A stretch of DNA of 64,000 nucleotides from Candidatus Omnitrophota bacterium (GTDB lineage Bacteria > Ratteibacteria > UBA8468 > MWAK01): the NCBI GenBank assembly GCA_043826355.1, contig JBDRQI010000005.1:48678-112677 (forward strand), given 5' to 3'. Below the pieces are notes generated by a model that was not told where the DNA came from, did not search any database, and worked only from the letters and a program-made list of their open reading frames with translations. Shown here piece by piece: positions 4,670-23,201 of this stretch; within the stretch, counting starts at the first letter, position 1; each line of letters opens with the position of its first letter. The translations under genes and the position numbers were made by a program.

Positions 4670-5590
4670 TCAGGAGTTAACGCTGTGGTATTCGTTTTTC
4701 CCGATACGCCGATTTTTAATCAGACCTTTTTTTGTCAAACCGCCCAGGACTTTAATTATCTCATTCGGGTTGCAACCGGTAACCAAAACGATGTCTTGTA
4801 GGGTCAACGGCCGGCGTTTAAGCGTCGCCAGAATGAGTTCTTCTTCGGCCTGAAAATGGGCCGGTTCCCGTCCGGCAAATTCCGCGATTATCTCGCAACC
4901 CGGCCCGATAATTTCAGCGGCTTTTTCCATCTCAGCCTGGACAAGGGGGAAGAATCCTTCTTCCGCCGGAGGCCGCACCACGGTATTCAACTGAATTTTG
5001 TCGATTTTTAAAGATTTAATTGTCTTTCGTATCTTCTCTAGTTCGGACTTTGAATCGTTAACACCTTTCACCAGCATTATTTCCAGCCATATCTTGCCCG
5101 GATACTCCCGGCTGAATTTACGCAGACCTTCAATCATAATCTTCGATTTCAAATCCGGGTGGGGCCGGTTGACAGCTTGAAAAATTTTCTCGGAAACCGC
5201 GTCCAGGGAAGGAACCACAACATCCGCCTCCATTAAATCCTGCCGCACTTCTTTTTGGCAAAGTAGAGAACCGTTGGTCAGGACCGCAATGGGAATCCGG
5301 GTAATCTTCTTTAAACCACAAATCATCTTACCCAGTTCGGAATTGAGGGTCGGCTCACCGGAACCGGAGAAGGTAAGGAAATCTACGCGGGGATTCTTCT
5401 TAAGGAGTTCGGTAACTTCGGCAATTATCGTTTCCGCCGGCACATATGGTTTTCGCTCCAGGGTCAATTCCGGCGTCGGCCCCAACTGGCAATAAACGCA
5501 GTTGAGCGTACAGGTTTTGGCCGGAATAACGTCGATCCCCAGCGAAAAACCTAAGCGTCGTGAAGGCACCGGCCCGAAAAGATGCTCCAT
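4670..5590 (-). CDS. radical SAM protein (GPVPSRRLG-type) with C-terminal winged-helix domain
   Basis: CTLNCVYC is a CxxxCxxC radical SAM motif, preceded by FGPVPSRRLGFSLGI. The C-terminus looks like a wHTH (LTLQDIVLVTGCNPNEIIKVLGGLTKKGLI). Confidence 0.65.
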   Translation of the reverse strand: MEHLFGPVPSRRLGFSLGIDVIPAKTCTLNCVYCQLGPTPELTLERKPYVPAETIIAEVTELLKKNPRVDFLTFSGSGEPTLNSELGKMICGLKKITRIPIAVLTNGSLLCQKEVRQDLMEADVVVPSLDAVSEKIFQAVNRPHPDLKSKIMIEGLRKFSREYPGKIWLEIMLVKGVNDSKSELEKIRKTIKSLKIDKIQLNTVVRPPAEEGFFPLVQAEMEKAAEIIGPGCEIIAEFAGREPAHFQAEEELILATLKRRPLTLQDIVLVTGCNPNEIIKVLGGLTKKGLIKNRRIGKNEYHSVNS

Positions 5591-5624
5591 ACCTTTTTAT
5601 CATAACCGAAAGCAAGGGAAATCG

Positions 5625-6248
5625 TCAATGAACCTTCTTTGCGCTAACTACAACAAATCCGCCTTTACCGAACCCTTTTCCGGGATTTTGAATTGAACCT
5701 ATTTTTTCGGGTAAATTATATATAGTTTGATAATATGAAAATCTGCCAAAGCCCGTCTTTTTCAACAAGTCAGTCAGTTCACCGACGCTGAAAAATTTTG
5801 CCTGTTTGTAAAATACGCTCTTTTTCTTCTGATAGAACCTGCCTAAAAAACTATCCCGGTCGACGATGCCGAGAATTATCCTGCCTTCTTTTTTTAAAAC
5901 CCTCCTTGCCTCGATCAAAACTTTTAAAGTATTTCTGACAAAACAGATGGTAATTATAATTACGGCATAATCAAAAACAGAATCTTCAAACGGCAGTCTT
6001 TCCCCATAACTCAGATGCGCGTCTATGCCTCTTTTACGGGCGATTCCAAGCATATTTTCCGAAGGGTCAACTCCATACCTTATCCCCAGAGCAGACGCAA
6101 ATCTCCCTGTACCCACGCCGATTTCCAATCCTTTGCCTTTTTTCGGTAAAACCTTTTTTATGGCTTTCAGTTCCGAAAGATAGGCAAATGTATTCCGCTC
6201 ATACCAGGCATCATACTTTTTGTAATATCGGTCAAATATGCCTTCCAT
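5625..6248 (-). CDS. class I SAM-dependent methyltransferase
   Basis: Motif I LEIGVGTGRF; about 200 aa Methyltransf_11-like. Confidence 0.75.
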   Translation of the reverse strand: MEGIFDRYYKKYDAWYERNTFAYLSELKAIKKVLPKKGKGLEIGVGTGRFASALGIRYGVDPSENMLGIARKRGIDAHLSYGERLPFEDSVFDYAVIIITICFVRNTLKVLIEARRVLKKEGRIILGIVDRDSFLGRFYQKKKSVFYKQAKFFSVGELTDLLKKTGFGRFSYYQTIYNLPEKIGSIQNPGKGFGKGGFVVVSAKKVH

Positions 6249-6272
6249 ATCCGTGTTTGCTTGAAGCGCCCG

Positions 6273-7544
6273 TCACGAATTCACCGATTGAGACTCATCA
6301 AGCGAATGTGTCGGCGCAATAATCTGTTCAAGTTTATTGTCGCGATATTTCTCAATCACCTCTTTTACCGTTGAGTCTTCGTCTATCTTATAAATGTCCA
6401 CAAAATTATCTTTCAGCATATAGAAAGACAATTCTCCGATGCGGGATGTAAAGAGCAAATCCAGTTTATATTTAACGACGGTCTTGATAACTTTAATCCC
6501 TATGTGTTTAGTTTCTTTAAGAAACTCATTATAGTAAAAATCTTCTATCTCCGGCTCGTCATTTTTGAGCCTTAAAATAAGGTAATAAGGCGCCCGGCCA
6601 AAATGTCCGTAAACTTTTGAATTTAAACCATCAATATTTTTTACCGGAATAACGGCTGAAACAGCTTTTTCTTTTGACGGTTCAACGTGAATGAAAACCG
6701 ATTCTATGTGTTCGTAATTTTTTACTATAAAATCTTCCGTTTTATCCGCTAATTCATGCGCCCGGTATAAAGGCAAAGCGGGAGAAGTTTTTATTTTGCA
6801 CTCAACCATCTTAAAAGGGCCTGCCTGTCGAATCTTTACCTCGCTTACGCCTTTCACTCCATATATTTCATTTACCTTTTTTTCAATTTCGTTTTGTAAC
6901 TCCGGGTCAAGATTCGCATCCATTAAAACCAAAAATGCTGTCCGCGCATTCGTTAAACCCAGTTTAAAGATAAGGATTGAAATCAATATGATAACAAAGC
7001 CTTCAACGTAGGGAATCTTCGCGTAAACCAATACTATGCCTAAAAGAACTACTATTGATGTATAAATATCCAAAAACGATTCGGAAGCATTGGCCAGAAG
7101 AGACTGCGAACCTATTGCCCGACCAACCGCTTTCTCTTTTTTTGCGATAAAATAGGCGGCGATGATGGAAATTATACTTGCGCCAACCGGAAAAATTGAA
7201 ATTTCCCGAATAGAAAGAGGACGAAAAAATCTTTGGTACCCGTCTTTGAAAATCTGGATTCCCGCCCAAACAATTAAAATACCGATGATAAGGCTTCCCA
7301 ACGTCTCCGCTTTATACAATCCGTAAGGAAATGTCTTGCTTTTTTTCTTGGAAGCAAGCCACAGGCCGAATCCGGAAGCAAAAATAGCCAAAACGTCGGC
7401 TCCGCTGTGGAAAGCATCGGCTATCAATATCTTTAAATCAAATAAATACCCCACCGCCGCTTTTATCAGAGCCAAAAAAATTGTCGCAAAAGTCGCAATG
7501 AAGGCTATTTTCTGTCCTTGTTTTAAACCTTCCGTTCTCTCCAT
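6273..7544 (-). CDS. cation diffusion facilitator (CDF) transporter fused to a C-terminal NifX/NifB-like (dinitrogenase FeMo-cofactor biosynthesis) domain
   Basis: Six-TM CDF core (ADAFHSGADV..., LYKAETLGSLIIG) plus cytoplasmic domain. The extra ~120 aa C-terminus carries VYGHFGRAPYYLIL, typical of the NifX-like domain family. Confidence 0.7.
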   Translation of the reverse strand: MERTEGLKQGQKIAFIATFATIFLALIKAAVGYLFDLKILIADAFHSGADVLAIFASGFGLWLASKKKSKTFPYGLYKAETLGSLIIGILIVWAGIQIFKDGYQRFFRPLSIREISIFPVGASIISIIAAYFIAKKEKAVGRAIGSQSLLANASESFLDIYTSIVVLLGIVLVYAKIPYVEGFVIILISILIFKLGLTNARTAFLVLMDANLDPELQNEIEKKVNEIYGVKGVSEVKIRQAGPFKMVECKIKTSPALPLYRAHELADKTEDFIVKNYEHIESVFIHVEPSKEKAVSAVIPVKNIDGLNSKVYGHFGRAPYYLILRLKNDEPEIEDFYYNEFLKETKHIGIKVIKTVVKYKLDLLFTSRIGELSFYMLKDNFVDIYKIDEDSTVKEVIEKYRDNKLEQIIAPTHSLDESQSVNS

Positions 7545-7553
7545 AGCAAAAAC

Positions 7554-7772
7554 CTATTCCTCATGGAAAAATTGGCGGGCCATAATGGAACCGCACCGCG
7601 GACATCTTGTCTGGAAACAAGGCAACCCGGAACTGCGCGGCATAATCAAACCGCATTTAGGACAAACGCAAACGGGCACGGGTCCCCGGGAACCAAAAAC
7701 CCCCGGCCATCTTCCGTGAAATCCCCTCCCCCTACCGCCTCTACCCCTACCTTTTCCGAAACCAAACGGCAT
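7554..7772 (-). CDS. DUF5320-like Gly/Arg-rich small protein with C-terminal zinc ribbon
   Basis: MPFGFGKGRGRGGRGRG... then CPKCG...CPRCG. Paralogous to 19906-20151 and to the DUF5320 protein at 22304-22708. Confidence 0.6.
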   Translation of the reverse strand: MPFGFGKGRGRGGRGRGFHGRWPGVFGSRGPVPVCVCPKCGLIMPRSSGLPCFQTRCPRCGSIMARQFFHEE

Positions 7773-7858: not shown

Positions 7859-9703
7859 TCACTTTTCTAAGATTTTCCGCACCTTTCCCCAGATCTTCTT
7901 TATGCTGTCGGTTAAGGCCGTATTTGTATATTCAACCACCGAAAGTTTCCGCATCTGCGCTTCCGTAACCTCTTTTCCGTACGGTATCACCCCCAGAAAT
8001 TCCGAACCGTGTTTCCCCGAAAGTTCCCTTATCTTTTCGGTCATTTCTTCATTCAAATCATACTTGTTTACGACTATGCCCGACTTGACCCCAAAATGCT
8101 TGATTACCTGCAATATCCTTTCCAAATCGTGCACGCCGGACACCGTGGGCTCGGTAATTGCCAGGGCGTAATCGGCTCCCGTAATGGAAGATATTACCGG
8201 ACAGCCCGTGCCGGGGGCTCCGTCCATTACGGCCCTGTTTCTCTTATTCCGCTCGGCAAGCAGGGCGGCTTTATCCCTGACCAGAGTAACCAACCTGCCG
8301 GAGTTTTCCTCGGCCACTCCTAATTTAGCGTGGCTCATCGGGCCAAACCGGGTATCGGACATAAACCATTCGCCGTTAACGGCCGGCCTGGTCTTTACGG
8401 CGCCATACTCACACACCAATTCGCACACCCCGCATCCTTCGCAAGCCAGTTTATCAATTATATATCTTTTTTTATTCTTCTCCCGGAATTCATTAATGGC
8501 AAAAAATCTGCAGGCTTCTTTACATTTTCCGCATTGGACACACGCCTTCTGGTCTATTTCCGCCTCTACCCCCCCACTAAAAAAACTTTTCTCTTTTATT
8601 CGGGGCGATAAGACCAGATGCAAGTCCGCCGCGCCGACATCGCAATCGGAAATCACGCTATTTTTTGCCAAAGCGGCGAAAGACGCCGTCAAAGAAGTTT
8701 TTCCGGTTCCGCCTTTTCCGCTGATAACCACTAATTCCCTGGGCTTTTTAGCTCCGGAAACGCCGTACTTCCTGACTTCTTCAGGAATTTTTTTACCGGA
8801 TAATCTATCCTTTTTCACTAACTTCGGTATTTTTTTCTCACCTTGGGCCAAAATTAATATTTTATCACCCAGGGTTTCAAACATTTTTTTTATTTCGGGA
8901 AACTTCTCTACCGCCATTTCACCCCGGGAATAACTTTCGGCTATCCGCCGTTGGTCGGGAATTTCTCCGATTATATCCAGTTCTTCCTTTAAACAATATT
9001 CCTTTAAAGCCGCATCTTTATATTCGGCCCGATTGACTATTATTACCGGTTCCTGTCCTACTTCCCTGGCCATATCTACGGAAAGTTTCAGGTCGTTTAT
9101 ACCAAAAGGAGTGGGGTCGGTAACCAGAATGCATACATCAACGTCTTTAACCGTTTCCACCACCGGACAACTTGTCCCGGGCGCCGAATCCAAAATATTA
9201 ATTCCTTCTCCGATACATTCTTTTACTCTTTTTACCAACCGGGGCGACATACCCCCCTCTGCCGTTTCCAGCAACGCGTAATAGACCTTTATCTTATCGC
9301 TTACACCCTCCTTCATAACGCCTATTTTTCTTTTCTTTTCAATAATCGCATCCACCGGACAGACAATCTTGCATGCGCCGCAGACATGGCATAACTCGTT
9401 GAATATGAGTACCTGTTTGTTAACCACCGCTATCGCATTATATTTGCAGACCTGTGCGCATTTACCGCATAAGATGCATTTTTTTTTATCCGCCTCCGCC
9501 GGGGCGATTAAATTAATATCTTCTTCCTTGTTGATGACGGGCTTAAGAAACAGGTGCCCGTTAGGTTCTTCCACATCGCAGTCCAGATAGCGAATCCGGC
9601 TGTACTTTTCAGCCAATACCTTTGCCAGATTTGTTGCGATAAAAGTTTTGCCTGTTCCGCCTTTGCCGCTGGAAATAGCAATTTTTATGTTAATTTTTTT
9701 CAT
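7859..9703 (-). CDS. tandem-duplicated MinD/ParA-type P-loop ATPase with 4Fe-4S ferredoxin inserts
   Basis: Two Walker A motifs (SSGKGGTGKT and ISGKGGTGKT), each followed by a double CxxCxxCxxxCP ferredoxin cassette. Confidence 0.8.
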   Translation of the reverse strand: MKKINIKIAISSGKGGTGKTFIATNLAKVLAEKYSRIRYLDCDVEEPNGHLFLKPVINKEEDINLIAPAEADKKKCILCGKCAQVCKYNAIAVVNKQVLIFNELCHVCGACKIVCPVDAIIEKKRKIGVMKEGVSDKIKVYYALLETAEGGMSPRLVKRVKECIGEGINILDSAPGTSCPVVETVKDVDVCILVTDPTPFGINDLKLSVDMAREVGQEPVIIVNRAEYKDAALKEYCLKEELDIIGEIPDQRRIAESYSRGEMAVEKFPEIKKMFETLGDKILILAQGEKKIPKLVKKDRLSGKKIPEEVRKYGVSGAKKPRELVVISGKGGTGKTSLTASFAALAKNSVISDCDVGAADLHLVLSPRIKEKSFFSGGVEAEIDQKACVQCGKCKEACRFFAINEFREKNKKRYIIDKLACEGCGVCELVCEYGAVKTRPAVNGEWFMSDTRFGPMSHAKLGVAEENSGRLVTLVRDKAALLAERNKRNRAVMDGAPGTGCPVISSITGADYALAITEPTVSGVHDLERILQVIKHFGVKSGIVVNKYDLNEEMTEKIRELSGKHGSEFLGVIPYGKEVTEAQMRKLSVVEYTNTALTDSIKKIWGKVRKILEK

Positions 9704-10031
9704 ATTTACCGTATTTCTCGCAATTTTTTATCTGGGAAACCGTCCTTTTCGATTCCTGCCTCCTGTTTTGCCACGGCCAAAATCTCCTCTCCTTCCAAAA
9801 GAATTTCTGCCTGTAAAAAAGGGGGGTGGGGTTTTTAGAAAAATTCAGGTCGTTTTTTGACGGACTAAAATTAATTGCTCTCGCAGGACAAACATTGACA
9901 CACCTACCGCACTCGGTGCATTTATTAGTACTAATATGAGCAATATCTTTAATTAGAGTTATTGCTTGCGCCGGACAAACATTTATGCAAGCGCCACAAC
10001 CTCTACATTTAGTAATGTTAACGCACACCAT
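9690..10031 (-). CDS. 2x[4Fe-4S] ferredoxin
   Basis: CRGCGACINVCP and CTECGRCVNVCP. The ~50-aa low-complexity tail crosses homopolymer runs and overlaps the downstream gene by 14 nt, so the true stop is uncertain. Confidence 0.65.
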   Translation of the reverse strand: MVCVNITKCRGCGACINVCPAQAITLIKDIAHISTNKCTECGRCVNVCPARAINFSPSKNDLNFSKNPTPLFYRQKFFWKERRFWPWQNRRQESKRTVSQIKNCEKYGKYEKN

Positions 10032-10586
10032 TTAATGCCTCCTGAAATTTAATACATAGCCCTCGTTGTAACTTTTATCGTGCAGAAGAATCCTTAGAAC
10101 CTTTTTCTCAAGAATAAAACCGGCTTTTTCTATTTCCTCCACCACGCCGTCCAGATTAACATCAGTCAACTCCATTGCAGGGTGGTCTTCTTTGTGATGT
10201 CTTGAGTAAACGGAAAGAAAACCCTCTTTTTTTAAAACCCGGCGAATCTCATTATAAATGACAGTTCTTCTCTTTCTGTTCTGGTAGTGGATAACGTCAT
10301 AACATAAAACCGCATCCAAGAAATCATCTTTTAAAGGAATTTTTGAGTCCTTTTTTATTAACTCAATGTTTTTTATATTACCCTTTTTCACTCTTTCTTT
10401 TAATCTATCCAGAGCATCCTTGTCCCTGTCCAGAGCGTATACTTTAGCCGCTATTTTTGAGGCGGGAATTGTGTAGTGCCCCTCGCCTGAACCAAAATCC
10501 AGGATAGTTCGGCCTTTTTTAATTCCGATTTCTTCTAAAAATTTTTCACCGTCCTGTTCCATCCATTTTTTAACATAATTTTCCAT
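10032..10586 (-). CDS. class I SAM-dependent methyltransferase
   Basis: Motif I ILDFGSGEGHYT; about 180 aa. Confidence 0.75.
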   Translation of the reverse strand: MENYVKKWMEQDGEKFLEEIGIKKGRTILDFGSGEGHYTIPASKIAAKVYALDRDKDALDRLKERVKKGNIKNIELIKKDSKIPLKDDFLDAVLCYDVIHYQNRKRRTVIYNEIRRVLKKEGFLSVYSRHHKEDHPAMELTDVNLDGVVEEIEKAGFILEKKVLRILLHDKSYNEGYVLNFRRH

Positions 10587-10628: not shown

Positions 10629-10877
10629 TTATTTGCTGTATAATTCTTCGAAAACGCTTTCGGCGGCTAACGCTATCGGTTCTCTGCCGGGGTCAGGGGA
10701 CAATTCCGGCTGACCGGCGCATCTCAAAATAGATTCTTGTTTCGCTGCAATCACTTTCTCATTAGGTTCCCGAATTATGGTTACTTCAAAAAAAGGTTTC
10801 AGTTTTTTTACCGCGAGAGCGGCTAACGCGCCGCATCCGGAACATCCTATTGCAACAACTCTTTTTTTTCCATCCAT
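10629..10877 (-). CDS. hypothetical small Cys-containing protein
   Basis: 82-aa ORF in the operon, VVAIGCSGCGALAA. No recognisable family. Confidence 0.35.
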   Translation of the reverse strand: MDGKKRVVAIGCSGCGALAALAVKKLKPFFEVTIIREPNEKVIAAKQESILRCAGQPELSPDPGREPIALAAESVFEELYSK

Positions 10878-16689: not shown

Positions 16690-17069
16690 ATACCGTGAAT
16701 TACTTTTATGCCGTTATCGTGGCAAAACTTGACGGCGGCCTGGCTTTCGGCCCCGGGCTGAAGCCATACTCTCTTTACGCCTTTCTGCAGGCATTCCTTT
16801 AAAATACTCTCCGTTACCGCCGGAGGAGTGACTAAATCAGCAATATCCACCGGATATAGAATATCGTTTATGGTTTTGTAACAGATTCTACCCTCAACTT
16901 CACGCATACTGGGATTAACGGGAAAAACTTCATAACCCTTAGCCAGTAAATTAATTAAAATCTTATAGGCGTATTTGGTCTTGTTCCTGAACGAACCTAC
17001 TACCGCGAATCTTTTTTGTTTCAAAAAATCTTCAACTAAATTTTCCATCTTTGATTGCATTAAAAACAC
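16647..17069 (-). CDS. CoA-binding domain protein
   Basis: FAVVGSFRNKTKYAYKI...PVNP; about 130 aa YccU-like. Confidence 0.75.
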   Translation of the reverse strand: MFLMQSKMENLVEDFLKQKRFAVVGSFRNKTKYAYKILINLLAKGYEVFPVNPSMREVEGRICYKTINDILYPVDIADLVTPPAVTESILKECLQKGVKRVWLQPGAESQAAVKFCHDNGIKVIHGICVMLESLKKGEIL

Positions 17070-17155: not shown

Positions 17156-17884
17156 TTACTCGAATTTTTTACGGAATAATTTTATCGCCGGTAAAATGAA
17201 AAAAACAAAAAAGCCGATAAGTGTCAGGGTATAAAGAAAAATCATTTTATTTGAAACAGCTGAAAATGATAATCGCAGGCCGTCCACCGTATAAGTAAGG
17301 GGTAAAACATAGGCAAAATGCCGTAAAACAAGCGGCATTTTAGATACGGGATAGACAACACCGCTCAAAAATATCAACAAGAAACGCGGGAGGTTAAGTA
17401 ATGTCTGGGCTTCAAAAACTTCTTTAACCATCACGCACAAAAGGGCGCCGAGAGAAGAAAATACAAAGAGCGAAGGAAAAATTATCAGAATAAGGTAAAG
17501 GATGTTTGGGTGGAGCCCAAGCACTACCACAGAAATTATTGTTACTGCAGTTGTCATCAAACAGCCGAAAACAACACCTCCCAAAATCTTTCCGAAAAGC
17601 ACCGCAGTTGTACTGATGGGCGCCAAAAGCAATCTCTCCAAAGAACCAAGCCGTAGTTCAAAGTTTATAACAACTGCTTCGGCAGCAGTGGTGCTGAAAA
17701 GAATCGTCATCGCAATCAATCCGGGCACTAACTCTTTAAAATCTCCGGGATTCCTTAAATAAAAAGCTAAAATCCAGGTAATCGGAAAGACGATACCCCA
17801 ACTGACTGACGGCGGTTTAAAATAGTATGTCTTTATGTCTTTTAAAACGATATAGAAAATACCCCGCAGGTTATCGCGCCACAT
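17156..17884 (-). CDS. ABC-2 family transporter permease
   Basis: Six-TM, about 240 aa, immediately downstream of an ABC ATPase. Confidence 0.75.
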   Translation of the reverse strand: MWRDNLRGIFYIVLKDIKTYYFKPPSVSWGIVFPITWILAFYLRNPGDFKELVPGLIAMTILFSTTAAEAVVINFELRLGSLERLLLAPISTTAVLFGKILGGVVFGCLMTTAVTIISVVVLGLHPNILYLILIIFPSLFVFSSLGALLCVMVKEVFEAQTLLNLPRFLLIFLSGVVYPVSKMPLVLRHFAYVLPLTYTVDGLRLSFSAVSNKMIFLYTLTLIGFFVFFILPAIKLFRKKFE

Positions 17885-18703
17885 TTAATGTCCTTTTTCA
17901 ATTGCTAAAATTTCCGGCTCTAAACCCGTAATTTTCATAAACGCTTCTTCCAATGATTTTTTATCAGTTTTTACCTTTAAAACTTGAGGAGTATCGAACA
18001 CCAAAATTCTCCCCTTTACGAGGATGGCCACACGGTCGCATAAAAGATCTGCCTCTTCTAAGTAATGGGTAGTAAGAAAAATGGTTATCCCTTGCCGGCG
18101 GAGATTAGATATCAAATTACGCAAAGAACGAGCAGCCACTACATCTAAGCCGGCCGTAGGCTCATCCAGAAAAAGAACTTCAGGATTATGAATTAACGCC
18201 GCTGCGACAGTCAAAGCCCGCTTCATACCGCGGGAAAATGTACGGAAGGAACTGTCTTTGCGCTCATAGAGTCGGAAGGTTTTCAGCAATTCTTCCGCTT
18301 TTTTCTTGCGCTGAGCGCGGGGAACACCATAAAGTTGCGCCATGAATATCAGATTATCCATTGCAGATAGTTCATCATAAAGATTAGAGATTTCCGGAAC
18401 AACCCCAATATGTTTCTTTATCTGCACAATTTGTGAACCAATGTCAAGTCCAAAAATAGATGCTTTTCCACCGGTGGGTTTAGAAAGCCCCGTAAGCATC
18501 CTTATAGTTGTAGTTTTTCCGGCGCCATTTGGACCCAAAAATCCAAAAATATCGCCTTTCTCAACTTCAAAATTGATATGGTCAACAGCGAGAAAATCGC
18601 CGTAATGCTTTGTTAAACCTGACGCTTTAATTATAATGTCCTTATTCATTTGTAGATACCCACGGGCACAGCCCGTGTAACTCAAAGCGGCTTTTAGAGA
18701 CAA
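17885..18703 (-). CDS. ABC transporter ATP-binding protein
   Basis: Walker A GPNGAGKTT, signature LSRGMKRAL, Walker B LFLDEPT. Confidence 0.9.
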   Translation of the reverse strand: MSLKAALSYTGCARGYLQMNKDIIIKASGLTKHYGDFLAVDHINFEVEKGDIFGFLGPNGAGKTTTIRMLTGLSKPTGGKASIFGLDIGSQIVQIKKHIGVVPEISNLYDELSAMDNLIFMAQLYGVPRAQRKKKAEELLKTFRLYERKDSSFRTFSRGMKRALTVAAALIHNPEVLFLDEPTAGLDVVAARSLRNLISNLRRQGITIFLTTHYLEEADLLCDRVAILVKGRILVFDTPQVLKVKTDKKSLEEAFMKITGLEPEILAIEKGH

Positions 18704-18737: not shown

Positions 18738-19058
18738 TTAAAAAGTCAAAAGTCTGTCGCTTTCCTTAACCAATTCGTACAAATCTTTCATCGTTGACAA
18801 AGGGCACGTCTCAGAACCGTTGGACTGCCGGATTTTCAGGCATGAGCCGCAAGCCAATATCTTTCCGCCGTTGTCAACGAAGGAACGCATCTGTTCCGTT
18901 ACCTTAAATTTATCGGTATCCAAAGATTCGCATTCCACGCCTTTGCCGAGCAAAAAAACCTTAACCTCGTCATTTTCTTTCCGGCTATAAACACCGAGCC
19001 GAAATGCGTTCCAAACGGTCTCCGAATCATTTGAATAAATAATTATCCCTAACTTCAA
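18738..19058 (-). CDS. DsrE/DsrF-like family protein
   Basis: About 105 aa; DsrE-like fold with conserved Cys (ACGSC). Confidence 0.6.
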   Translation of the reverse strand: MKLGIIIYSNDSETVWNAFRLGVYSRKENDEVKVFLLGKGVECESLDTDKFKVTEQMRSFVDNGGKILACGSCLKIRQSNGSETCPLSTMKDLYELVKESDRLLTF

Positions 19059-19105: not shown

Positions 19106-19175
19106 GTAGGGGTCGGATTCATCCGACCCGCGGGCTTGATAAATCAAGCCCCTACAAAATCCTTATGTAAATTTA
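19106..19175. repeat. Family-B palindromic repeat (GTAGGGG...GCCCCTACAA..TGTAAATTTA)
   Basis: Nested hairpins ggtcggattcatccgacc and gggcttgataaatcaagccc. Related copies at 30557-30606 and 31495-31570. Confidence 0.65.
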
Positions 19176-19886
19176 GAGATTCAGGGTCTGCCCTGCTTTT
19201 ATCGGAATAAAACGGTCCCCGTATCTTTCCTTGAAAATTTCCTCGGCAACTTTGCCGCTGCAATGAGTAGGACCCACCTTTTCGATTTTCATCTTTTGAA
19301 ACCGTTTGGCTATAATAGATATAATTCTTTTATCCTCTTCCATCAAATGAAAACCGCCGAACACCAGATATATCGTTTCACCCGGAAATTTCCTTCGGAC
19401 TCTTTCCAGGATTTTAAGAATCCCGGGATGGGCGCACCCGGTCATTACCGTAAGACCGTTCTGCGTCTTCACGATAAGCGCCTGTTCAGGCATATCACTT
19501 CCGTGATAAACGCCCGGTATCTCCCCTGTGATAAAAATATCTTTTGCAATCTCCTTGAATTTTTCCGTTTCAACAAAAATCCCCTGCAACTTTTTTACTT
19601 TTTCCTTAAACTCTGCGCTGAAATGCGGGCAGGCATAAACGGTGATTCCCTTTCTTCTGGCCAGTATTTCCCATAATCCTCCGGCATGGTCCCAGTGGTC
19701 ATGAGAAATTACCACCGCTTCAAATTCCGCTAAATTTATTCCCAGTTTATCAATATTCTCAATGAGCCATTGCCCGTTTTCACCGGTATCAAATAAGATT
19801 CTATTATCAACCAGGAACGAAACACCCCACCCGATATGAAGATTCTTTGCACAAGAATCTTCATCAAAAATAACCTTTATTTCCAT
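19173..19886 (-). CDS. MBL-fold metallo-hydrolase
   Basis: HxHxDH motif (VISHDHWDHAGG). Confidence 0.8.
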   Translation of the reverse strand: MEIKVIFDEDSCAKNLHIGWGVSFLVDNRILFDTGENGQWLIENIDKLGINLAEFEAVVISHDHWDHAGGLWEILARRKGITVYACPHFSAEFKEKVKKLQGIFVETEKFKEIAKDIFITGEIPGVYHGSDMPEQALIVKTQNGLTVMTGCAHPGILKILERVRRKFPGETIYLVFGGFHLMEEDKRIISIIAKRFQKMKIEKVGPTHCSGKVAEEIFKERYGDRFIPIKAGQTLNL

Positions 19887-19905: not shown

Positions 19906-20151
19906 TTACTCCCTTATCATCAAACTGTTGCATTTAGGGCACCTGACCGAAGAACAAGGTACGCCTACATCATGCGTCGCTTTTGCGCCGCACTTGGGGC
20001 AAATACAATTTCCGCTCGGGCCTGCGCCGGCTCTATTTCCCCTATTTCTGCCCATTCCTCCGGAAATTCCGATTCTTCTGCCCATGCCCCTGCCTGTACC
20101 CGGACCTTGTCCAAAAGGGCCTGTTCCGTTTCCTCCCGGCATTTTAATCAC
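19906..20151 (-). CDS. DUF5320-like Gly/Arg-rich small protein with C-terminal zinc ribbon
   Basis: [19 protein letters not shown]... then CPKCG...CPKC. Overlaps the downstream NifX-like gene by 4 nt. Confidence 0.6.
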
Positions 20152-20528
20152 CTCCCCTTATTTTGTATTCCGAATTTTGAACCGACCGTGGATTTCTGCG
20201 TCGGCGTGAACTCTCCCTTTTTATATTTTTCCACCGCTTCTTTAACCGTTCCGGACACGCCGACGATAATATTTATCCCGGCTGCCTGCAAAGTCTGAAA
20301 TGCGTTCGGTCCAACGTTTCCCGTGAGCACGGCTTCAACCTGTTTTTCGGCCATAACCTGGCCCGACTGAATACCCGCCCCTCCTCCCGCTTGAATATTT
20401 GGATTTTCCACCGCTTCAAATTCCATAGTGTCGGTATTTACGATGATAAAATACCGGCATCTTCCGAAACGCGGGTCAACCACGGAATCCAGATTATCAC
20501 CTTCTGCCGTAACGCAAATTTTACCCAT
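20148..20528 (-). CDS. NifX/NifB-like (dinitrogenase iron-molybdenum cofactor biosynthesis) domain protein
   Basis: [13 protein letters not shown] motif; about 125 aa. Confidence 0.75.
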
Positions 20529-20561
20529 CTTTACCTCCCCTGTTTAACTTTCGCAAATTTC

Positions 20562-20942
20562 TTAATCGGAATGGTCGCACACCGTTTTGTCCAAACCATA
20601 TCCCTTACCGGAACCGGGTTTGCAAAAACTTTCGCCGCCGCCTAAAGTTCCTTTCACAAGTTTCTCAATTACTTCCGTTAATGTTCCGCTTACTCCCACA
20701 ATGGTTTTTATCCCGAACTCTTCAAATAGACCCTGGGCCCTTGCACCCATTCCGCCGGCAACGATACAACCTACTCCTCGCTGATGCAAAAACTGCGGAA
20801 TGAATCCCGGTTCATGTCCGGGATTACCAACCGATTCTTTTTTGGTAACTTTTCCTTTTTCGATATCTACTATCGTGAAGGTCGGGCAACGTCCAAAGTG
20901 ACCGGATACAAAATCACCATCCGTGGATATTGCTATACGCAT
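20562..20942 (-). CDS. NifX/NifB-like (dinitrogenase iron-molybdenum cofactor biosynthesis) domain protein
   Basis: SGHFGRCPTFTIVD motif; about 125 aa. Confidence 0.75.
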   Translation of the reverse strand: MRIAISTDGDFVSGHFGRCPTFTIVDIEKGKVTKKESVGNPGHEPGFIPQFLHQRGVGCIVAGGMGARAQGLFEEFGIKTIVGVSGTLTEVIEKLVKGTLGGGESFCKPGSGKGYGLDKTVCDHSD

Positions 20943-20952
20943 AATCCTCCTT

Positions 20953-21504
20953 TCATAAAATCAACACCGCGGCTGCAAAGACGGTCGTCCACCGTCCGTC
21001 CTTGTCTCCGATAGCCGACTGGGTAACGTTGGTTGTCTTGACTATCTGGTCGCTCAGCCGCCAGACCTGTTTCTTTTCGTCGTAACTGCTGTCCGGGTCA
21101 AACTTCACGCCCAGGGTGGTGGCCAGCATCTGGGCAGCCAGGTCTTCGGCGTAATCGCCCGCCTTTTCATCGGTCAGGCCGAAGCCGGAAAATTCGGAGA
21201 GGTAGCCGTGGCTGTGCGGGTTTTTGGGAAGGGCGACCCCGATGGAAGAGGTGATGAGCCGGTGCGGTTCGTTGGTGGAGTTCTTGCTCATCACGCAGAA
21301 GAGAATCTGGCCCGGGTCCAGCAGTTTCTGGCCGGATTCCCGGCTGATTAGTTTGGCTCCCGGCGGGAAGATGCTGGTGATGGGCACCAGGTTGAAAGGC
21401 GCAATGCCGGCATCCCGCAGTGCCCGTTCCAGGCTGGTCAGTTTCTCCCGGTCCCGGCCAACTCCCTTGGTCAAAAATATCTTCTTTGCAGTCAAGTTAA
21501 CCAT
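20953..21504 (-). CDS. pdaD: pyruvoyl-dependent arginine decarboxylase
   Basis: KIFLTKGVG...LERALRDAGIAPFNLV...S; about 180 aa PdaD family. Confidence 0.7.
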   Translation of the reverse strand: MVNLTAKKIFLTKGVGRDREKLTSLERALRDAGIAPFNLVPITSIFPPGAKLISRESGQKLLDPGQILFCVMSKNSTNEPHRLITSSIGVALPKNPHSHGYLSEFSGFGLTDEKAGDYAEDLAAQMLATTLGVKFDPDSSYDEKKQVWRLSDQIVKTTNVTQSAIGDKDGRWTTVFAAAVLIL

Positions 21505-21517
21505 CCCTTTTACCCTC

Positions 21518-22234
21518 TCATTTTTTCAAAATTGTTGTCAACACCTTTTCCTTGCTGATTTTTTTAGTGCAGAAGAACCAGTCGTAACATTTTATACCTT
21601 CTTTTGACTCCATCCGTTCCTTGGCTACTCCGCAGGAACCTGCCGTGGGCACGATGACATCGTCACCGGGCTGCCAATCGGCCGGAGTTGCAACCGAAAA
21701 CTCATCGGCTGTCTGGAGAGCCAACAGGATGCGGTACAATTCAGCAAAGTTTCTCCCCATGCTTAAAGGATAGTACAGGATGGTCCGGATAATCCCCTTG
21801 GGGTCTATAACGAAGACGGCCCGGACCGCCTTGGTGGAACTTTCCCCGGGCTGAATCATCCCGTATTTCTTGGCAACTTCCATCGTAATGTCTTCAATCA
21901 GGGGAAACTTGACTTCCACGTCCTTCATGCCGCGGTACTCAATCTTTTCCTTGATGGTGCGTAACCAGGCAATGTGGCTGTAAAGACCGTCCACCGACAG
22001 GCCGACCAATTTGCAGTTTGCCTTTAAAAACTGCTCCTCCATTGAAGCGAACGTCATGAACTCAGAAGTGCAGACGGGCGTAAAATCGGCGGGGTGGCTG
22101 AAAAGGATAACCCAGCTTCCCGCATATTGTTTCGGAAAATCTATTTCGCCCTGCGTTGTAACCGCCTTAAAAGCAGGGGCTTTTTCGCCGATGCGGGGCA
22201 TTGCAACAAATCCAACCGTATTTTGATTGTCCAT
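21518..22234 (-). CDS. peroxiredoxin (Prx6-like, AhpC/TSA family)
   Basis: FTPVCTSEF peroxidatic cysteine motif. Confidence 0.85.
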   Translation of the reverse strand: MDNQNTVGFVAMPRIGEKAPAFKAVTTQGEIDFPKQYAGSWVILFSHPADFTPVCTSEFMTFASMEEQFLKANCKLVGLSVDGLYSHIAWLRTIKEKIEYRGMKDVEVKFPLIEDITMEVAKKYGMIQPGESSTKAVRAVFVIDPKGIIRTILYYPLSMGRNFAELYRILLALQTADEFSVATPADWQPGDDVIVPTAGSCGVAKERMESKEGIKCYDWFFCTKKISKEKVLTTILKK

Positions 22235-22263
22235 CGTTATTCTCCTCCGCTATTCCCTTGATA

Positions 22264-22295
22264 AACAGGGGGCAGCCAAAAGACTGCCCCCTGTT
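22264..22295. terminator. perfect stem-loop (12-bp stem) between the DUF5320-fur unit and the peroxiredoxin gene
   Basis: aacagggggcag-ccaaaaga-ctgccccctgtt. Confidence 0.5.
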
Positions 22296-22303
22296 CCCGG
22301 TAC

Positions 22304-22708
22304 TCACTTCTTTTCCGCTCCCGCCTTTTCCTCGGCGGCAAGCTTCTCCAGTTCCGCAATGTACCGGTGTATCTCCTTTATCTCCTTTTCCATCGCGGAA
22401 ACCTGCTCTTTAAGCAATACCGCTTCATTCTGCGGGCTTAATTCCGGACCCGCCGGAGGCACCGGATAACCTCCCCAGGCCGGAAGACCCATGCCTGCCC
22501 GATACCAACCGGGAAGACCGGTTGCGTAGTAACGGTTGCGCCGTCCTCTGCCTCCGCCGCGGCCAAAAAATCCTCTGCCCCCGCCAAAATAACCCCGGCC
22601 GGGGATTGGATTCGCATAGCCGGGCATTCCGTAGCCGGCGCAGTATCCGGCGCCTCTTCCGGTCATCGGCCCCAGACCATTCGGCCCTGTTCCATCTCCA
22701 AACGGCAT
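22304..22708 (-). CDS. DUF5320 domain protein
   Basis: MPFGDGTGPNGLGPMTGRGAGYCAG...; C-terminal coiled coil. Confidence 0.7.
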   Translation of the reverse strand: MPFGDGTGPNGLGPMTGRGAGYCAGYGMPGYANPIPGRGYFGGGRGFFGRGGGRGRRNRYYATGLPGWYRAGMGLPAWGGYPVPPAGPELSPQNEAVLLKEQVSAMEKEIKEIHRYIAELEKLAAEEKAGAEKK

Positions 22709-22709
22709 C

Positions 22710-23201
22710 TTATCTCACCCCCTTTCCGCGGCAATCGTGACATAAACCCAGAAATTGAATCTGGTGTTCGTTAATCTGAAAATTATGCTTTCGGCTCAAG
22801 GCTTCTTCAATATTCTTAATCACCTTCTTCTCTTCCTCTAAAAATTCCTGATAATCAATAATCCGGCCGCAATTGGTGCAACAAAGATGGTGGTGGTGAT
22901 TGCCCCCGGAACCAAAAGAGAGTTCGTAACGACTCTTTCCGTCCCCAAAATCGAGTCGGGAAACCAGGCCCATCTCAACCAGGACTTCCAGGGTCCGGTA
23001 AACGGTGGTCAGGCCGATTGAAGGAAAAGTTTTATGAATATTACGGTAAATCTCTTCAACGGGAAGATGGCCGCCGGTTCGCTGTAAAAACTCCATAATC
23101 GCCTGCCTGGGAAAGGTCAGCCGGTACCCGCAGTTTCGCAACCGGCCATGCCACCAGCCGGGATGGTTCATCCTGCCCGTGAAACCGGCTTTCCGTCCCA
23201 T
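22710..23201 (-). CDS. fur: Fur family transcriptional regulator
   Basis: wHTH N-terminal domain, HHHH.C..C and C..C metal sites. True start probably at the internal Met. Confidence 0.85.
   Translation of the reverse strand: MGRKAGFTGRMNHPGWWHGRLRNCGYRLTFPRQAIMEFLQRTGGHLPVEEIYRNIHKTFPSIGLTTVYRTLEVLVEMGLVSRLDFGDGKSRYELSFGSGGNHHHHLCCTNCGRIIDYQEFLEEEKKVIKNIEEALSRKHNFQINEHQIQFLGLCHDCRGKGVR

Follow-up and report, generated by a model that had tools for sequence, protein, structure and literature searches.

The window analysed here, a 64,000-nt stretch of a contig from a Candidatus Omnitrophota bacterium, carries a long run of co-directional genes on its minus strand. An earlier note on this DNA described positions 4670-23201 as a nearly all minus-strand array of genes for handling Fe-S clusters and metallocofactors, and the run is in fact longer than it stated, extending from 39 to 27334 with about 36 ORFs in the ORF list of the window. 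Pfam and NCBIfam scans, together with motif checks, placed almost all of the domains that it had named on this strand (Table 1). Of the three proteins that it called DUF5320-like, one gives a clear Pfam match. The FeoAB that it counted in the set is present as a FeoA-FeoB fusion, but lies outside 4670-23201. Four features had been missed, namely an ABC-2 permease/ATPase pair, an MBL-fold gene, a pyruvoyl-dependent arginine decarboxylase and an 82-aa orphan ORF. Nitrogenase families were absent from all scanned ORFs of the window, in agreement with the claim that nifHDK is lacking.

Table 1. Features of the array, all on the minus strand, with their occurrence in related loci
Feature	Position	Basis	Related loci
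FeoA-FeoB fusion (ferrous iron uptake)	2719..4662	Pfam scan; 7 bp downstream of radical SAM gene	distal cluster end in L001, L006, L024, L035, L040, L086
Radical SAM	4670..5590	N-terminal GPVPSRRLG, CxxxCxxC, C-terminal winged helix	27/83
Class I SAM methyltransferase	5625..6248	Pfam	32/83
CDF-ZT_dimer-Di-Nase fusion (C-terminal PF02579)	6273..7544	Pfam/NCBIfam	distal cluster end in L086, L087
Gly/Arg-rich zinc-ribbon protein, MPFGFG...RQFF type	7554..7772	sequence; paired with CDF-Di-Nase gene	immediately upstream of CDF-Di-Nase in L039, L068, L072, L086, L087
Orp3-Orp4 fusion, tandem MinD/CbiA-ferredoxin	7859..9703	two GKGGTGKT, four CxxCxxCxxxC motifs	64/83 (MinD-ferredoxin)
2x[4Fe-4S] ferredoxin, basic C-terminal tail	9690..10031	Pfam scan	
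Class I SAM methyltransferase	10032..10586	Pfam	11/83
82-aa orphan ORF	10629..10877		
FmdB-type zinc ribbon, Cys-rich tail	10923..11165	PF09723, TIGR02605	21/83
RACo/AcsV-like 2Fe-2S + ASKHA ATPase	11190..12842	PF00111, PF17651, PF14574	3/83 (10-kb reach)
DUF89/ARMT1-like metal-dependent phosphatase	12811..13728	PF01937, 224 bits	19/83, plus L001, L087
Mrp/NBP35 Fe-S carrier ATPase	13753..14601	CPHC motif at residue 206	31/83
Class I SAM methyltransferase	14623..15276	Pfam	49/83, commonest of the three
CoA-disulfide-reductase-like flavoprotein (CoADR)	15304..16689	TIGR03385, 240 bits, under cut-off	29/83
CoA_binding_2 protein	16647..17069	Pfam; pairs with CoADR-like gene	17/83
ABC-2 permease + ATPase	17156..18703	PF01061, PF00005	1/83 (permease)
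DsrE-like small protein	18738..19058	PF02635	3/83
MBL-fold protein	19173..19886	PF00753	31/83, plus L001, L003, L086, L087
Gly/Arg-rich protein, DUF5320-type N-terminus + zinc ribbon	19906..20151	weak PF17253 match, 25.2 bits, below threshold	follows ORP in 36-40 loci, plus L086, L087
Orange protein (Orp8) homologue	20148..20528	stand-alone PF02579	
Di-Nase (PF02579) protein, MrpORP C-terminal type	20562..20942	GHFGRC near N-terminus, CDH at C-terminus	adjoins ORP gene in 81/83
Pyruvoyl-dependent arginine decarboxylase (PvlArgDC)	20953..21504	PF01862, 191 bits	3/83
1-Cys peroxiredoxin	21518..22234	AhpC-TSA + 1-cysPrx_C	one other locus, L047
Strong stem-loop after DUF5320	22235..22303	MFE -32 kcal/mol	45-48/56
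DUF5320 protein	22304..22708	PF17253, 78.8 bits	63/83, always between fur and Di-Nase gene
Fur-family regulator, first gene of array	22710..23201	PF01475, 115.6 bits	70/83; 33/34 among loci >=15 kb
Putative Fur-family operator	23251..23273	overlaps predicted transcription start	
Sigma-70-like promoter of fur operon	23272..23300	TTGACA, 17 nt, TACAAT; 11/12 matches	same layout in nearly all

The centre of the array matches the orange protein (ORP) complex of Desulfovibrio, whose members include Orp3/4, Orp8 and MrpORP. The top PDB match of the Orp8 homologue is 2WFB, the ORP of D. gigas (E = 2e-23, 48% identity). The neighbouring Di-Nase protein aligns to positions 265-365 of the NCBIfam MrpORP profile (97.6 bits), and the Mrp ATPase aligns to positions 3-256 of the same profile with 383.9 bits, compared with 232.5 for ApbC; the latter protein is the equivalent of the MrpORP N-terminal domain. 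The tandem ATPase consists of two MinD-type deviant-Walker-A halves. Both contain a 2x[4Fe-4S] insert, and they align collinearly with separate, neighbouring Orp3/4-like genes of two related loci, L084 and L085 (35-37% and 43-46% identity). Its AF2 model (pLDDT 85, pTM 0.88) has MinD, ApbC, NifH and ArsA as fold neighbours, and the fused form is found in at least 120 clusters at 64-100% identity. The FmdB zinc ribbon is a candidate Orp5 equivalent; a Zn_ribbon_8 gene ends the ORP-MinD-MinD-Di-Nase clusters of L084, L085 and L086. Ferredoxins of about 115 aa, similar to the one in the window, lie upstream of the ATPase in L002. The earlier note had regarded the grouping of NifX-domain, MinD-ferredoxin and DUF5320 genes as lacking an assignment. 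This view needs correction, given that the NifX, MinD-ferredoxin and Mrp core is that of the ORP complex.

We also compared the array with 83 related loci, which come from many candidate phyla of anaerobes. Their arrangement, with Fur followed by DUF5320, Di-Nase, ORP and the Gly/Arg-rich zinc ribbon, hardly varies and is always co-directional, and all detected homologues share the strand of the anchor and a conserved order. In addition, independent searches anchored on MinD-ferredoxin and on CDF-Di-Nase each recovered the same cluster. The clustering is therefore far beyond chance, and the co-location of these genes across phyla bears out the earlier proposal. The array represents an extensive and broadly conserved form of the poorly understood metal-sulfur ‘orange protein’ gene cluster of anaerobic bacteria. 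The related loci span just 10 kb from the anchor, so that the counts for distal genes in Table 1 are lower bounds.

Around this core, the methyltransferases, CoADR with its CoA-binding protein (often located between two MinD-ferredoxin genes), the radical SAM protein, DUF89 and the MBL-fold protein are recurrent accessories, as are CDF-Di-Nase and FeoAB. The radical SAM protein shows weak similarity only, to W-cofactor maturase and MoaA. The RACo-like protein, which scores 329 bits against AcsV (cut-off 800), is an occasional accessory. The peroxiredoxin, PvlArgDC, the ABC-2 pair and the DsrE-like protein are lineage-specific additions; the first two are insertions, the peroxiredoxin into the conserved core, the ABC-2 pair is probably a passenger, and the DsrE-like gene is an occasional accessory.

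Three Gly/Arg-rich proteins of DUF5320 type are encoded in the array, and sequence comparison showed that each adjoins one of the three Di-Nase domains. The clear DUF5320 protein has an 89-aa cationic N-terminal part rich in Gly, Arg, aromatic residues and Pro (G29, R9, aromatic 14, P12, one Cys, pI 10.2), followed by an acidic, coiled-coil-like C-terminus. The gene of the second shares 4 bp with the ORP gene. The third, at 7554-7772, has no Pfam match but is a paralogue by sequence, having a Gly/Arg-rich N-terminus and a zinc ribbon. We propose that these cationic proteins may be partners of the Di-Nase domains, as the IssA tail is in cis. The pairing of the genes and a comparison of the DUF5320 composition with that of the IssA tail speak for this idea. 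Against it, none of the top 150 relatives of DUF5320 is fused to a Di-Nase domain.

At the far end of the array, the CDF domain is of the MamB/MamM/FieF-like (iron) type according to NCBIfam. The fusion that contains it has 814 homologues, and the best 120 of these all share the three-domain architecture. Together with FeoAB, this iron-type CDF may link the ORP system to Fe(II) transport.

Next, we considered the regulation of the array. The first gene encodes a Fur paralogue whose NCBIfam scores for Fur (125.9) and PerR (96.9) are each under the cut-off; it may sense Fe(II) or else peroxide/redox. The promoter in front of it is the top promoter-like site within 4000-23999, and a TTGACA-17-TATAAT layout recurs upstream of fur in nearly all related loci. 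The operator family has the consensus TTGATAATGGAAACCATT(A/T)TCAA in 66 of 69 loci, and the TTGATAATGGAAACCATTATCAA box is the predicted binding site of the ORP-associated Fur paralogue. Operators are conserved 5' of fur in 64-66 loci, and a second lies about 40 bp 5' of DUF5320 in about 36-42. When 1.1 Mb was scanned with the PWM, 112 sites of at least 16 bits were found, of which 64 preceded fur and 36 preceded DUF5320. The Fur-type palindrome covering the start site is conserved across many phyla of anaerobes, with over 60 loci carrying it. In the window, the operator is reduced to one 7-1-7 palindrome (TGAAAAT-A-ATTGTCA, 23252-23266). It is the sole match in the window with up to two mismatches, and 0 of 20 shuffles reached 13 bits; at 13.6 bits, compared with a median of 34.8, it is nevertheless the weakest of the family.

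The earlier note had placed the entire array under apparent Fur control. The Fur-family gene and its conserved operator support this at the head, but no operator-like site occurs in any internal gap of the window cluster, the site at the fur promoter being the sole one. Furthermore, a structured spacer equivalent to the stem-loop after DUF5320 is present in 45-48 of 56 loci (median MFE -29, z -4). The stem-loop may be a terminator, an attenuator or a transcript stabiliser. Direct Fur control is thus supported for the head only, and its extension to the whole 18.5 kb is an extrapolation. Most of the array may in fact lie outside Fur control, given that the hairpin could end transcription. In our reading, the hairpin would restrict read-through to the downstream genes, and the DUF5320 protein would therefore be made in excess. 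The sign of the control also deserves consideration. Canonical Fur logic is derepression at low iron, which fits poorly with switching on many Fe-S-rich proteins.

Taken together, we read 4670-23201 as an extended operon-like array for an ORP complex in an Omnitrophota bacterium, with a dedicated, autoregulated Fur-family repressor at its head, and give this reading a probability of about 0.7. By analogy with the work on Desulfovibrio, Mrp would load [4Fe-4S] clusters onto the MinD-ferredoxin ATPase, which would form a complex with the Di-Nase proteins, and the Di-Nase domains would carry non-covalently bound anionic metal-sulfide species. The Fur paralogue would make expression answer to iron or redox status. 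Of the Fe-S trafficking and repair suggested earlier, handling of Fe-S or metal-sulfide species in general is supported; repair has no specific support. It counts against our explanation that the D. gigas ORP holds a Mo-Cu cluster, not iron. The function of the ORP complex has not been established even in Desulfovibrio, and the role of the present variant is deduced from its genes. An iron-regulator gene and operator of its own tie the ORP system to iron handling, and this makes its function more testable.

Compared with the Desulfovibrio system, what appears to be new is the layout. Orp3 and Orp4, which are separate in the Desulfovibrio complex, are covalently fused in the window, whereas MrpORP, one protein in Desulfovibrio, is divided between two genes, one for the P-loop part and one for the Di-Nase part. 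In place of sigma-54 and OrpR, the array has a gene of the Fur family, which is preceded by a sigma-70-like promoter and an operator of palindromic form, and the canonical sign of Fur is opposite to that of OrpR, which activates while its own cluster is intact.

The minus-strand array at 4670-23201 is predicted to encode an orange protein (ORP)-type complex together with an Mrp carrier. It lies within an unbroken run of approximately 36 minus-strand ORFs (39-27334), which was delineated by ORF listing and by Pfam and NCBIfam scans, and its transcription order runs from high to low coordinates. These scans, together with direct motif checks, showed that the gene inventory of the earlier note was essentially right. 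Almost all of the domains that it named were recovered, although an ABC-2 ATPase/permease pair, a gene for an MBL-fold protein and a decarboxylase gene had been missed. FeoAB, which had been counted in the set, is present as well, but it lies beyond the range that had been given for the array.

Genes of the array in transcription order, with supporting evidence and the number of loci, among 83 related loci, that have a homologue (tblastn of all window proteins; counts for distal genes are lower bounds, the loci reaching 10 kb from the anchor)
Feature	Position	Strand	Score, motif or remark	Loci with homologue (of 83)
Fur	22710-23201	-	PF01475, 115.6 bits	70 (33 of 34 loci with a length of 15 kb or more)
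DUF5320 protein	22304-22708	-		63
1-Cys peroxiredoxin (Prx)	21518-22234	-		
Pyruvoyl arginine decarboxylase (PvlArgDC)	20953-21504	-		
Stand-alone PF02579 (Di-Nase) CDH protein	20562-20942	-		81
Stand-alone PF02579 protein, Orp8-type ORP	20148-20528	-		
81-aa Gly/Arg-rich zinc-ribbon protein	19906-20151	-		
MBL-fold protein	19173-19886	-		31
DsrE-like protein	18738-19058	-		
ABC-2 ATPase and permease	17156-18703	-		
CoA_binding_2 protein	16647-17069	-		17
CoA-disulfide-reductase-like flavoprotein (CoADR)	15304-16689	-		29
Methyltransferase	14623-15276	-		
Mrp	13753-14601	-	CPHC motif checked directly	31
DUF89 protein	12811-13728	-		19
RACo-like protein	11190-12842	-		
FmdB zinc ribbon with Cys-rich tail	10923-11165	-		21
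82-aa orphan ORF	10629-10877	-		
Methyltransferase	10032-10586	-		
2x[4Fe-4S] ferredoxin	9690-10031	-		
614-aa tandem MinD-ferredoxin ATPase	7859-9703	-	two GKGGTGKT and four CxxCxxCxxxC motifs	64, mostly unfused
72-aa Gly/Arg-rich zinc-ribbon protein	7554-7772	-		
CDF + ZT_dimer + Di-Nase fusion (CDF-Di-Nase)	6273-7544	-	CDF MamB/FieF-like, iron-type	
Methyltransferase	5625-6248	-		
Radical SAM protein with winged helix	4670-5590	-	GPVPSRRLG at residues 6-14	27
FeoA-FeoB fusion	2719-4662	-	7 bp past the radical SAM gene, outside the array coordinates	

Several other features of this region were recorded. The 82-aa orphan ORF has a GxGxxG-like N-terminus (VVAIGCSGCGALAA) and a homologue in just one related locus. 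We asked whether it derives from a flavoprotein disulfide reductase, but neither significant similarity to the CoADR or TrxR of the window nor a Pfam match was found; the ORF may be an orphan or the remnant of a gene. The GC content is approximately 0.38-0.46 (mean approximately 0.42) over 5400-19800, from the first methyltransferase gene to the MBL gene, and approximately 0.49-0.55 in the fur-to-Di-Nase head and in both flanks; this dip points to recombination with a relative of lower GC content or to a mosaic origin. Genes for an ABC importer of the iron-chelate or B12 type, namely Peripla_BP_2, FecCD and an ATPase, lie at 23395-27334 on the minus strand, directly upstream of the array and co-directional with it. 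A 239-aa radical SAM gene sits between the binding protein and the permease of this importer, which is unusual, and a DUF1559/N-methyl (PVC-type pilin-like) gene stands in front of it. An Rfam scan of the window found nothing in the structured gaps of the array, the sole matches being three tRNAs elsewhere.

The earlier note had treated the core of NifX-domain, MinD-ferredoxin and Mrp genes as having no assigned function. However, this core matches the ORP complex of Desulfovibrio component by component. In D. vulgaris Hildenborough, the orp genes encode two MinD-like ATPases with two [4Fe-4S] motifs apiece (Orp3/DVU2103 and Orp4/DVU2104), a small Cys-rich protein of the [2Fe-2S]-binding type (Orp5/DVU2105), the regulator OrpR (DVU2106), two Di-Nase proteins (Orp7/DVU2107 and Orp8/DVU2108, the latter being the orange protein) and MrpORP (Orp9/DVU2109), in which an Mrp/NBP35 P-loop domain is joined to a Di-Nase domain with CxHFGHCE and CDH motifs. 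For the window protein assigned as ORP, the best PDB match was the ORP of D. gigas (2WFB; E = 2e-23, residues 1-107, 48% identity). The window Mrp aligned with positions 3-256 of the NCBIfam MrpORP model at 383.9 bits, compared with 232.5 bits for ApbC, and the Di-Nase CDH protein, which has GHFGRC and CDH motifs, aligned with positions 265-365 of the same model at 97.6 bits; singly, neither gene reaches the model cut-off of 450 bits. MrpORP is thus predicted to be split into two genes in the window, approximately 6 kb apart. In ORP clusters of the deltaproteobacterial type (L084 and L085), the order is ORP, MinD, MinD, Di-Nase, Zn_ribbon_8. Since Zn_ribbon_8 genes close the ORP clusters in these two loci and in L086, a Nitrospirae locus, the FmdB protein of the window is a plausible candidate for the Orp5 equivalent.

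The two halves of the 614-aa ATPase are collinear with two adjacent but separate MinD-ferredoxin genes in both L084 and L085 (35-37% and 43-46% identity), and it is on these genes that the equivalence of the halves to Orp3 and Orp4 rests. The fused form is common, being found in at least 120 clusters at 64-100% identity, and was modelled confidently as one compact unit (pLDDT 85, pTM 0.88) in which each half has the MinD/ParA/ApbC/NifH fold. No Desulfovibrio locus was found among the best 80 of at least 595 loci retrieved with an ORP alignment that included the D. gigas ORP. The divergent sigma-54 arrangement was likewise not encountered in the ORP-anchored look-ups, which gave clusters of the deltaproteobacterial type. 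In domain scans of the 36 genes at 39-27334, neither a Sigma54_activat nor a PAS protein was found.

We analyzed the conservation of the array from three independent anchors, namely the fused ATPase, the ORP alignment (one genome per species; the best 80 were taken forward from at least 595 confirmed loci) and the CDF-Di-Nase fusion. All three returned the same array, and the CDF-Di-Nase anchor gave the whole cluster again in a Nitrospirae genome (L086) and in a JGI contig (L087). In the 83 loci, all homologues lie on the strand of the anchor. Homologues of the Gly/Arg zinc ribbon occur in 36-40 of these loci and those of the methyltransferases in 11-49, depending on the paralogue, and the flanking window genes (PRTase, FecCD, periplasmic binding protein and DUF1559) have homologues in none. 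The five core genes keep an almost invariant order, with median offsets from ORP of -1407 bp for Fur, -876 bp for DUF5320, -417 bp for Di-Nase and approximately +500 bp for the Gly/Arg zinc ribbon. Between 12 and 19 of the window families recur together and co-directionally in many loci of different phyla, and FeoAB closes the array in six loci. The carriers include Omnitrophota, WOR-3, Desantisbacteria, Ratteibacteria, Auribacterota, Elusimicrobiota, Cloacimonadota, Nitrospirae and Syntrophaceae, among others. This neighbourhood comparison, of the kind that the earlier note had called for, bears out its grouping, with the strand conserved and the order nearly so in the related loci.

Rare genes, each found in at most three of the 83 loci, are Prx, PvlArgDC, DsrE and the ABC-2 pair; they look like lineage-specific insertions. 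Prx and PvlArgDC (20953-22234) interrupt the junction between DUF5320 and Di-Nase, which is intact in nearly all other loci. A peroxiredoxin gene was found at a comparable position in one related locus only (L047), so that it is present in two of 84 clusters.

A 193-bp gap upstream of fur contains the best sigma-70-like site of the region, TTGACA-17-TACAAT, and a palindrome follows immediately. A conserved design is seen at this position in the related loci: TTGACA-17-TATAAT, then TTGATAATGGAAACCATT(A/T)TCAA, then AAGGAG and the fur start codon. The classical Fur box is GATAATGATAATCATTATC, which is described by a 7-1-7 model. A scan with the E. coli Fur box alone was uninformative, giving 27 matches of at least 13/19 across the window, and it was phylogenetic footprinting that made the operator clear. 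The family box is present in 66 of 69 loci, and its unshortened form is TTGATAATGGAAACCATTATCAA. The window operator (23251-23273) is a shortened version with a single 7-1-7 unit and, at 13.6 bits, is the weakest of the family; none of 20 shuffles reached 13 bits.

With a PWM of the family, 112 sites of at least 16 bits were found in 1.1 Mb of loci. Of these, 64 are upstream of fur; 36 precede DUF5320 by approximately 40 bp, approximately six others are probably also upstream of this gene, and there are almost none elsewhere. Because strong sites occur only upstream of these two genes, the ORP-associated Fur appears to be a local paralogue dedicated to the cluster, as OrpR is in Desulfovibrio. 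The operator upstream of DUF5320 (consensus ATGAAAATGATTTTCATTAACAA) lies between fur and DUF5320 in most relatives, that is, in approximately 36-42 loci within L006-L082 and L086, and is missing from the window because fur and DUF5320 are there only 1 bp apart. No operator-like site was found in the internal gaps of the array, the best PWM score being below 0 bits in every gap, and the window contains no other match with up to two mismatches to the operator pattern, including before FeoAB. Control by Fur, which the earlier note had extended to the array, is thus supported by sequence for the fur-DUF5320 head, which has the operator, but not for the genes downstream. Array-wide control is unsupported, the pattern and PWM scans having found no internal or FeoAB boxes, and control of the genes past DUF5320 depends on read-through of a hairpin.

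This hairpin is a stem-loop of -32 kcal/mol at 22235-22303, directly after DUF5320. A comparable structured spacer follows DUF5320 in 45-48 of 56 loci, 37 of them with a T-run, and the stem-loop may terminate or attenuate transcription and thereby keep the ratio of DUF5320 to downstream products high. Further along, a nested double hairpin of -38.8 kcal/mol is formed by the 114-bp gap after the MBL gene (19059-19172), ahead of an A/T-rich stretch and a Shine-Dalgarno sequence; this gap is likely to be a transcription-unit boundary within the array.

The window also contains a second Fur-family gene (27542-27964, plus strand; PF01475, 103 bits), whose product is 29% identical to the ORP-associated Fur. 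It lies 4 kb from the ORP-associated gene and heads an operon of znuA, an ABC ATPase and an ABC-3 permease (27508-30554, plus strand). The palindrome AAATAGAAATGGTTTCTATTT at 27508-27530 precedes it and is the only other site of the window above 13 bits on the ORP-Fur matrix. The product of this second gene resembles a Zur whose operator is related to, but distinct from, that of the ORP-associated Fur. Given that the second gene heads znuABC with a palindrome of its own, the ORP-associated Fur is probably not the Zur. In the Nitrospirae locus L086 (13790-18390), FeoA-FeoB is found downstream of the cluster with its own Fur gene, and SPASM radical SAM and MBL genes come after it. This arrangement points to two distinct Fur paralogues, one associated with ORP and one with Feo.

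The three Di-Nase domains and the three Gly/Arg-rich proteins of the window are arranged as adjacent pairs. DUF5320 and the Di-Nase CDH protein adjoin in more than 60 loci, with two inserted genes between them in the window; the genes for ORP and the 81-aa protein overlap by 4 bp; and the gene for the 72-aa protein is separated by 9 bp from CDF-Di-Nase, a pair that is kept in five related loci (L039, L068, L072, L086 and L087). A Gly/Arg/Gln-rich gene is also located upstream of ORP in a locus of the deltaproteobacterial type. In this locus (L085, 5942-6752), ORP is preceded by genes for a DUF134 putative DNA-binding protein and a 112-aa Gly/Arg/Gln-repeat protein, which would be a third regulatory solution for the ORP core and another Gly/Arg-rich partner, respectively.

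As unifying themes, we also considered nitrogen fixation, corrinoid activation and Mo/W cofactor synthesis; all three were rejected, the defining partner genes being missing. In agreement with the earlier note, which had reported no nifHDK, we found none of nifHDK, nifEN or nifB in the scanned ORFs of the window or in the related loci. The RACo-like protein has 2Fe-2S, RACo middle and ASKHA domains and scored 329 bits with the AcsV model, whose cut-off is 800. As no B12-binding or corrinoid protein was found among the scanned genes of the array run, its substrate is probably not a corrinoid protein.

As the most likely mechanism, and based on the biochemistry of the Desulfovibrio proteins, we propose that Mrp would pass [4Fe-4S] clusters to the MinD-ferredoxin ATPase, which would in turn associate with the Di-Nase proteins. 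The ATPase, as a built-in pseudo-dimer, may spend ATP on the assembly, transfer or mobilisation of anionic metal-sulfide species that are held by the Di-Nase domains and stabilised by their cationic Gly/Arg partner proteins. FeoAB and the MamB/FieF-like CDF would couple this process to Fe(II) transport, the Fur paralogue would set expression according to iron or redox status, and DUF5320 would be made in excess owing to the hairpin.

Other explanations were weighed against this mechanism. The regulator may instead be a PerR-like peroxide or redox sensor, so that the array would be an oxidative-stress regulon in which the ORP machinery, with peroxiredoxin, OsmC, thioredoxin and CoADR, protects or rebuilds oxygen-labile Fe-S proteins. 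The NCBIfam score of the regulator with the PerR model (96.9 bits) is near that with the Fur model (125.9 bits), both being below the cut-off; Prx is the next gene after fur-DUF5320 in the window and comes after fur in L047; and OsmC, thioredoxin and CoADR recur in the related loci. In addition, the Desulfovibrio orp operons respond to redox potential, not to iron, and L086 has a separate Fur gene before FeoAB. However, the operator, with half-sites of the TGATAAT type, agrees with the Fur box of E. coli in 15-16 of 19 positions, FeoAB and the iron-type CDF are recurrent members, and Prx, found in so few clusters, does not belong to the core, and we regard a PerR-like regulon as somewhat unlikely. 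It is also conceivable, because the D. gigas ORP carries a Mo-Cu cluster (S2MoS2CuS2MoS2), that the ORP module handles heterometallic clusters of the thiomolybdate or thiotungstate type, either for Mo/W salvage or detoxification in sulfidic habitats or for the supply of Mo/W enzymes, with iron having a regulatory or incidental part. The window ORP is 48% identical to that cluster-carrying protein, Mo-containing clusters are bound by the Di-Nase domains of NifX and NafY, and the radical SAM gene is weakly similar to a tungsten-cofactor maturase and MoaA; this last similarity, though, is far below the cut-off (48 vs 380 bits). [quoted passage not shown] A thiometallate function seems quite unlikely.

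According to the original proposal for the Desulfovibrio ORP complex, the MinD-like ATPases would form a positioning or cell-division system; if this held for the array, the metal centres would serve solely as redox sensors. The closest solved folds are MinD, McdA, FlhG and Soj, the fused ATPase ends in what looks from its sequence like a basic amphipathic helix, and in Desulfovibrio the orpR mutants have morphological defects and MrpORP localises to the cell pole. On the other hand, ApbC, NifH, HypB and Cfd1 are metal-handling ATPases of the same fold class, and the conserved partners are all metal, sulfur or redox proteins and iron transporters under a Fur-family regulator. Division genes (minC, minE, ftsZ and similar) are absent from the window and the related loci. 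We consider this proposal quite unlikely for the array. Finally, the array might consist of unrelated metal and redox genes that came to share a strand by chance, with functional links confined to short sub-operons. The scarcity of the ABC-2 pair, Prx, PvlArgDC and DsrE, the mosaic origin suggested by a GC content of approximately 0.42 at 5.4-19.8 kb between flanks of approximately 0.50-0.55, and the internal gaps of 86-114 bp with hairpins, which could separate transcription units, would all fit such a view. Nevertheless, chance is essentially excluded, and is largely refuted by the recurrence of the same families in the same direction across phyla, the nearly invariant order of the five core genes and the convergence of three different anchor genes on one cluster.

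A more specific form of the proposed mechanism is suggested by IssA (PF2025) of Pyrococcus furiosus, a thioferrate iron-sulfur storage protein with a globular domain of IPR003731/PF02579. IssA forms thioferrate nanoparticles and is induced when Fe and S are abundant. Its 70-residue tail (G15, seven cationic residues, aromatic 14, P11, one Cys, pI 10.7) has been proposed to bind anionic thioferrate. The window has three domains of the same family (20148-20528, 20562-20942 and the C-terminal part of 6273-7544) in a cluster that is likewise linked to iron and sulfur supply, and the N-terminal 89 residues of DUF5320 (G29, R9, aromatic 14, P12, one Cys, pI 10.2) closely resemble the published description of the tail in being cationic, rich in Gly, aromatic residues and Pro, single-Cys and disordered-looking. 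This likeness is one of composition and genomic pairing, not of demonstrated homology. Unlike in IssA, the tail-like sequences are on separate proteins encoded beside each Di-Nase domain; the stand-alone Di-Nase proteins (126 aa, pI 6.3 and 6.9) have short tails and lack an IssA-type tail in the same chain. MinD-ferredoxin, Mrp or Fur partners, for their part, are not reported in the IssA paper. HMMER and Pfam scans of the longer matches revealed no DUF5320-Di-Nase fusion among the best 150 of 3306 DUF5320 representative clusters, the longer relatives having N-terminal extensions or internal repeats. In the literature searched, nothing linked DUF5320 to ORP or IssA, and the mentions of DUF5320 concern other matters.

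We speculate that DUF5320-type proteins are equivalents of the IssA tail that act in trans, each paired with a Di-Nase domain, in building or dissolving a thioferrate-like iron-sulfide polymer. The Di-Nase CDH protein, ORP and the CDF C-terminus would each work with one Gly/Arg protein. The MinD-ferredoxin ATPase, matured by Mrp, would drive the build-up or dissolution of the anionic polymer, with FeoAB and the CDF supplying or draining it and the dedicated Fur paralogue acting as the switch. We regard this extension as unlikely, at roughly one chance in five. If it is true, then the ORP complex would be a two-component machine for iron-sulfur storage and mobilisation, widespread in uncultured anaerobic bacteria.

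The ORP gene cluster is already known as a kind. For approximately two decades the complex has been described as an "anaerobe-specific" metalloprotein assembly of sulfate reducers, and cell division, Mo-Cu chemistry and Fe-S maturation have been proposed as its role, with none agreed; no ORP-complex papers after 2021 were found in the literature searched. The present variant is very widespread, occurring in the window and at least 595 related loci from many anaerobic lineages. Its ORP core is headed by a dedicated Fur-family operator, is physically linked to ferrous-iron transporters and is accompanied by DUF5320 proteins, and these features together point the ORP question towards iron and iron-sulfide handling. 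DUF5320 is also identified as a core component. For annotation, the labels "NifX-like", "cobyrinic acid a,c-diamide synthase" and "P-loop NTPase" in MAGs could give way to ORP-system names.

Several known systems resemble parts of the array. Like ArsA, the window ATPase has two homologous P-loop halves in one chain, as an intramolecular pseudo-dimer, and ArsA gave the best whole-length fold coverage (TMq 0.39-0.40); however, ArsA lacks a ferredoxin insert and is only 11-12% identical to the window protein, and the window has no ArsB partner. Like NifX/NafY/NifB-C, the Di-Nase proteins have the PF02579 fold, in which preformed anionic metal-sulfur clusters are bound non-covalently, but their closest solved relatives are ORP, TM1816, MTH1175 and TM1290 rather than NifX or NafY. 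As in a classical autoregulated fur, a PF01475 protein is combined with an AT-rich palindrome overlapping the promoter or start site, and as in a classical Fur regulon, autoregulation is indicated by position and FeoAB is within the same array; unlike the classical regulator, the ORP-associated Fur seems to be a local, cluster-dedicated paralogue.

The closest comparison is with the orp genes of Desulfovibrio. Both systems have an Orp8-type Di-Nase protein and a second Di-Nase domain with CxHFGxC and CDH motifs, two MinD-type ATPase units with 2x[4Fe-4S] each and an Mrp/NBP35 carrier, and the FmdB zinc ribbon of the window may correspond to the small Cys-rich Orp5; both are restricted to anaerobes, and both appear to have a dedicated local regulator with strong sites confined to the cluster. 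What would be new in the variant is its form. Orp3 and Orp4 are predicted to be fused in one 614-aa protein and MrpORP to be split, and the genes form one co-directional array, whereas Desulfovibrio has two divergent operons. In place of sigma-54 promoters activated by OrpR (a PAS [4Fe-4S] EBP) with IHF, the variant would rely on a Fur-family repressor gene at a sigma-70-like promoter, with two conserved operators in the family. Unlike in Desulfovibrio, the DUF5320 and Gly/Arg zinc-ribbon genes appear as core members, and the variant has approximately 15 additional accessory genes, among them the CDF-Di-Nase module and FeoAB, part of which form a recurrent set.
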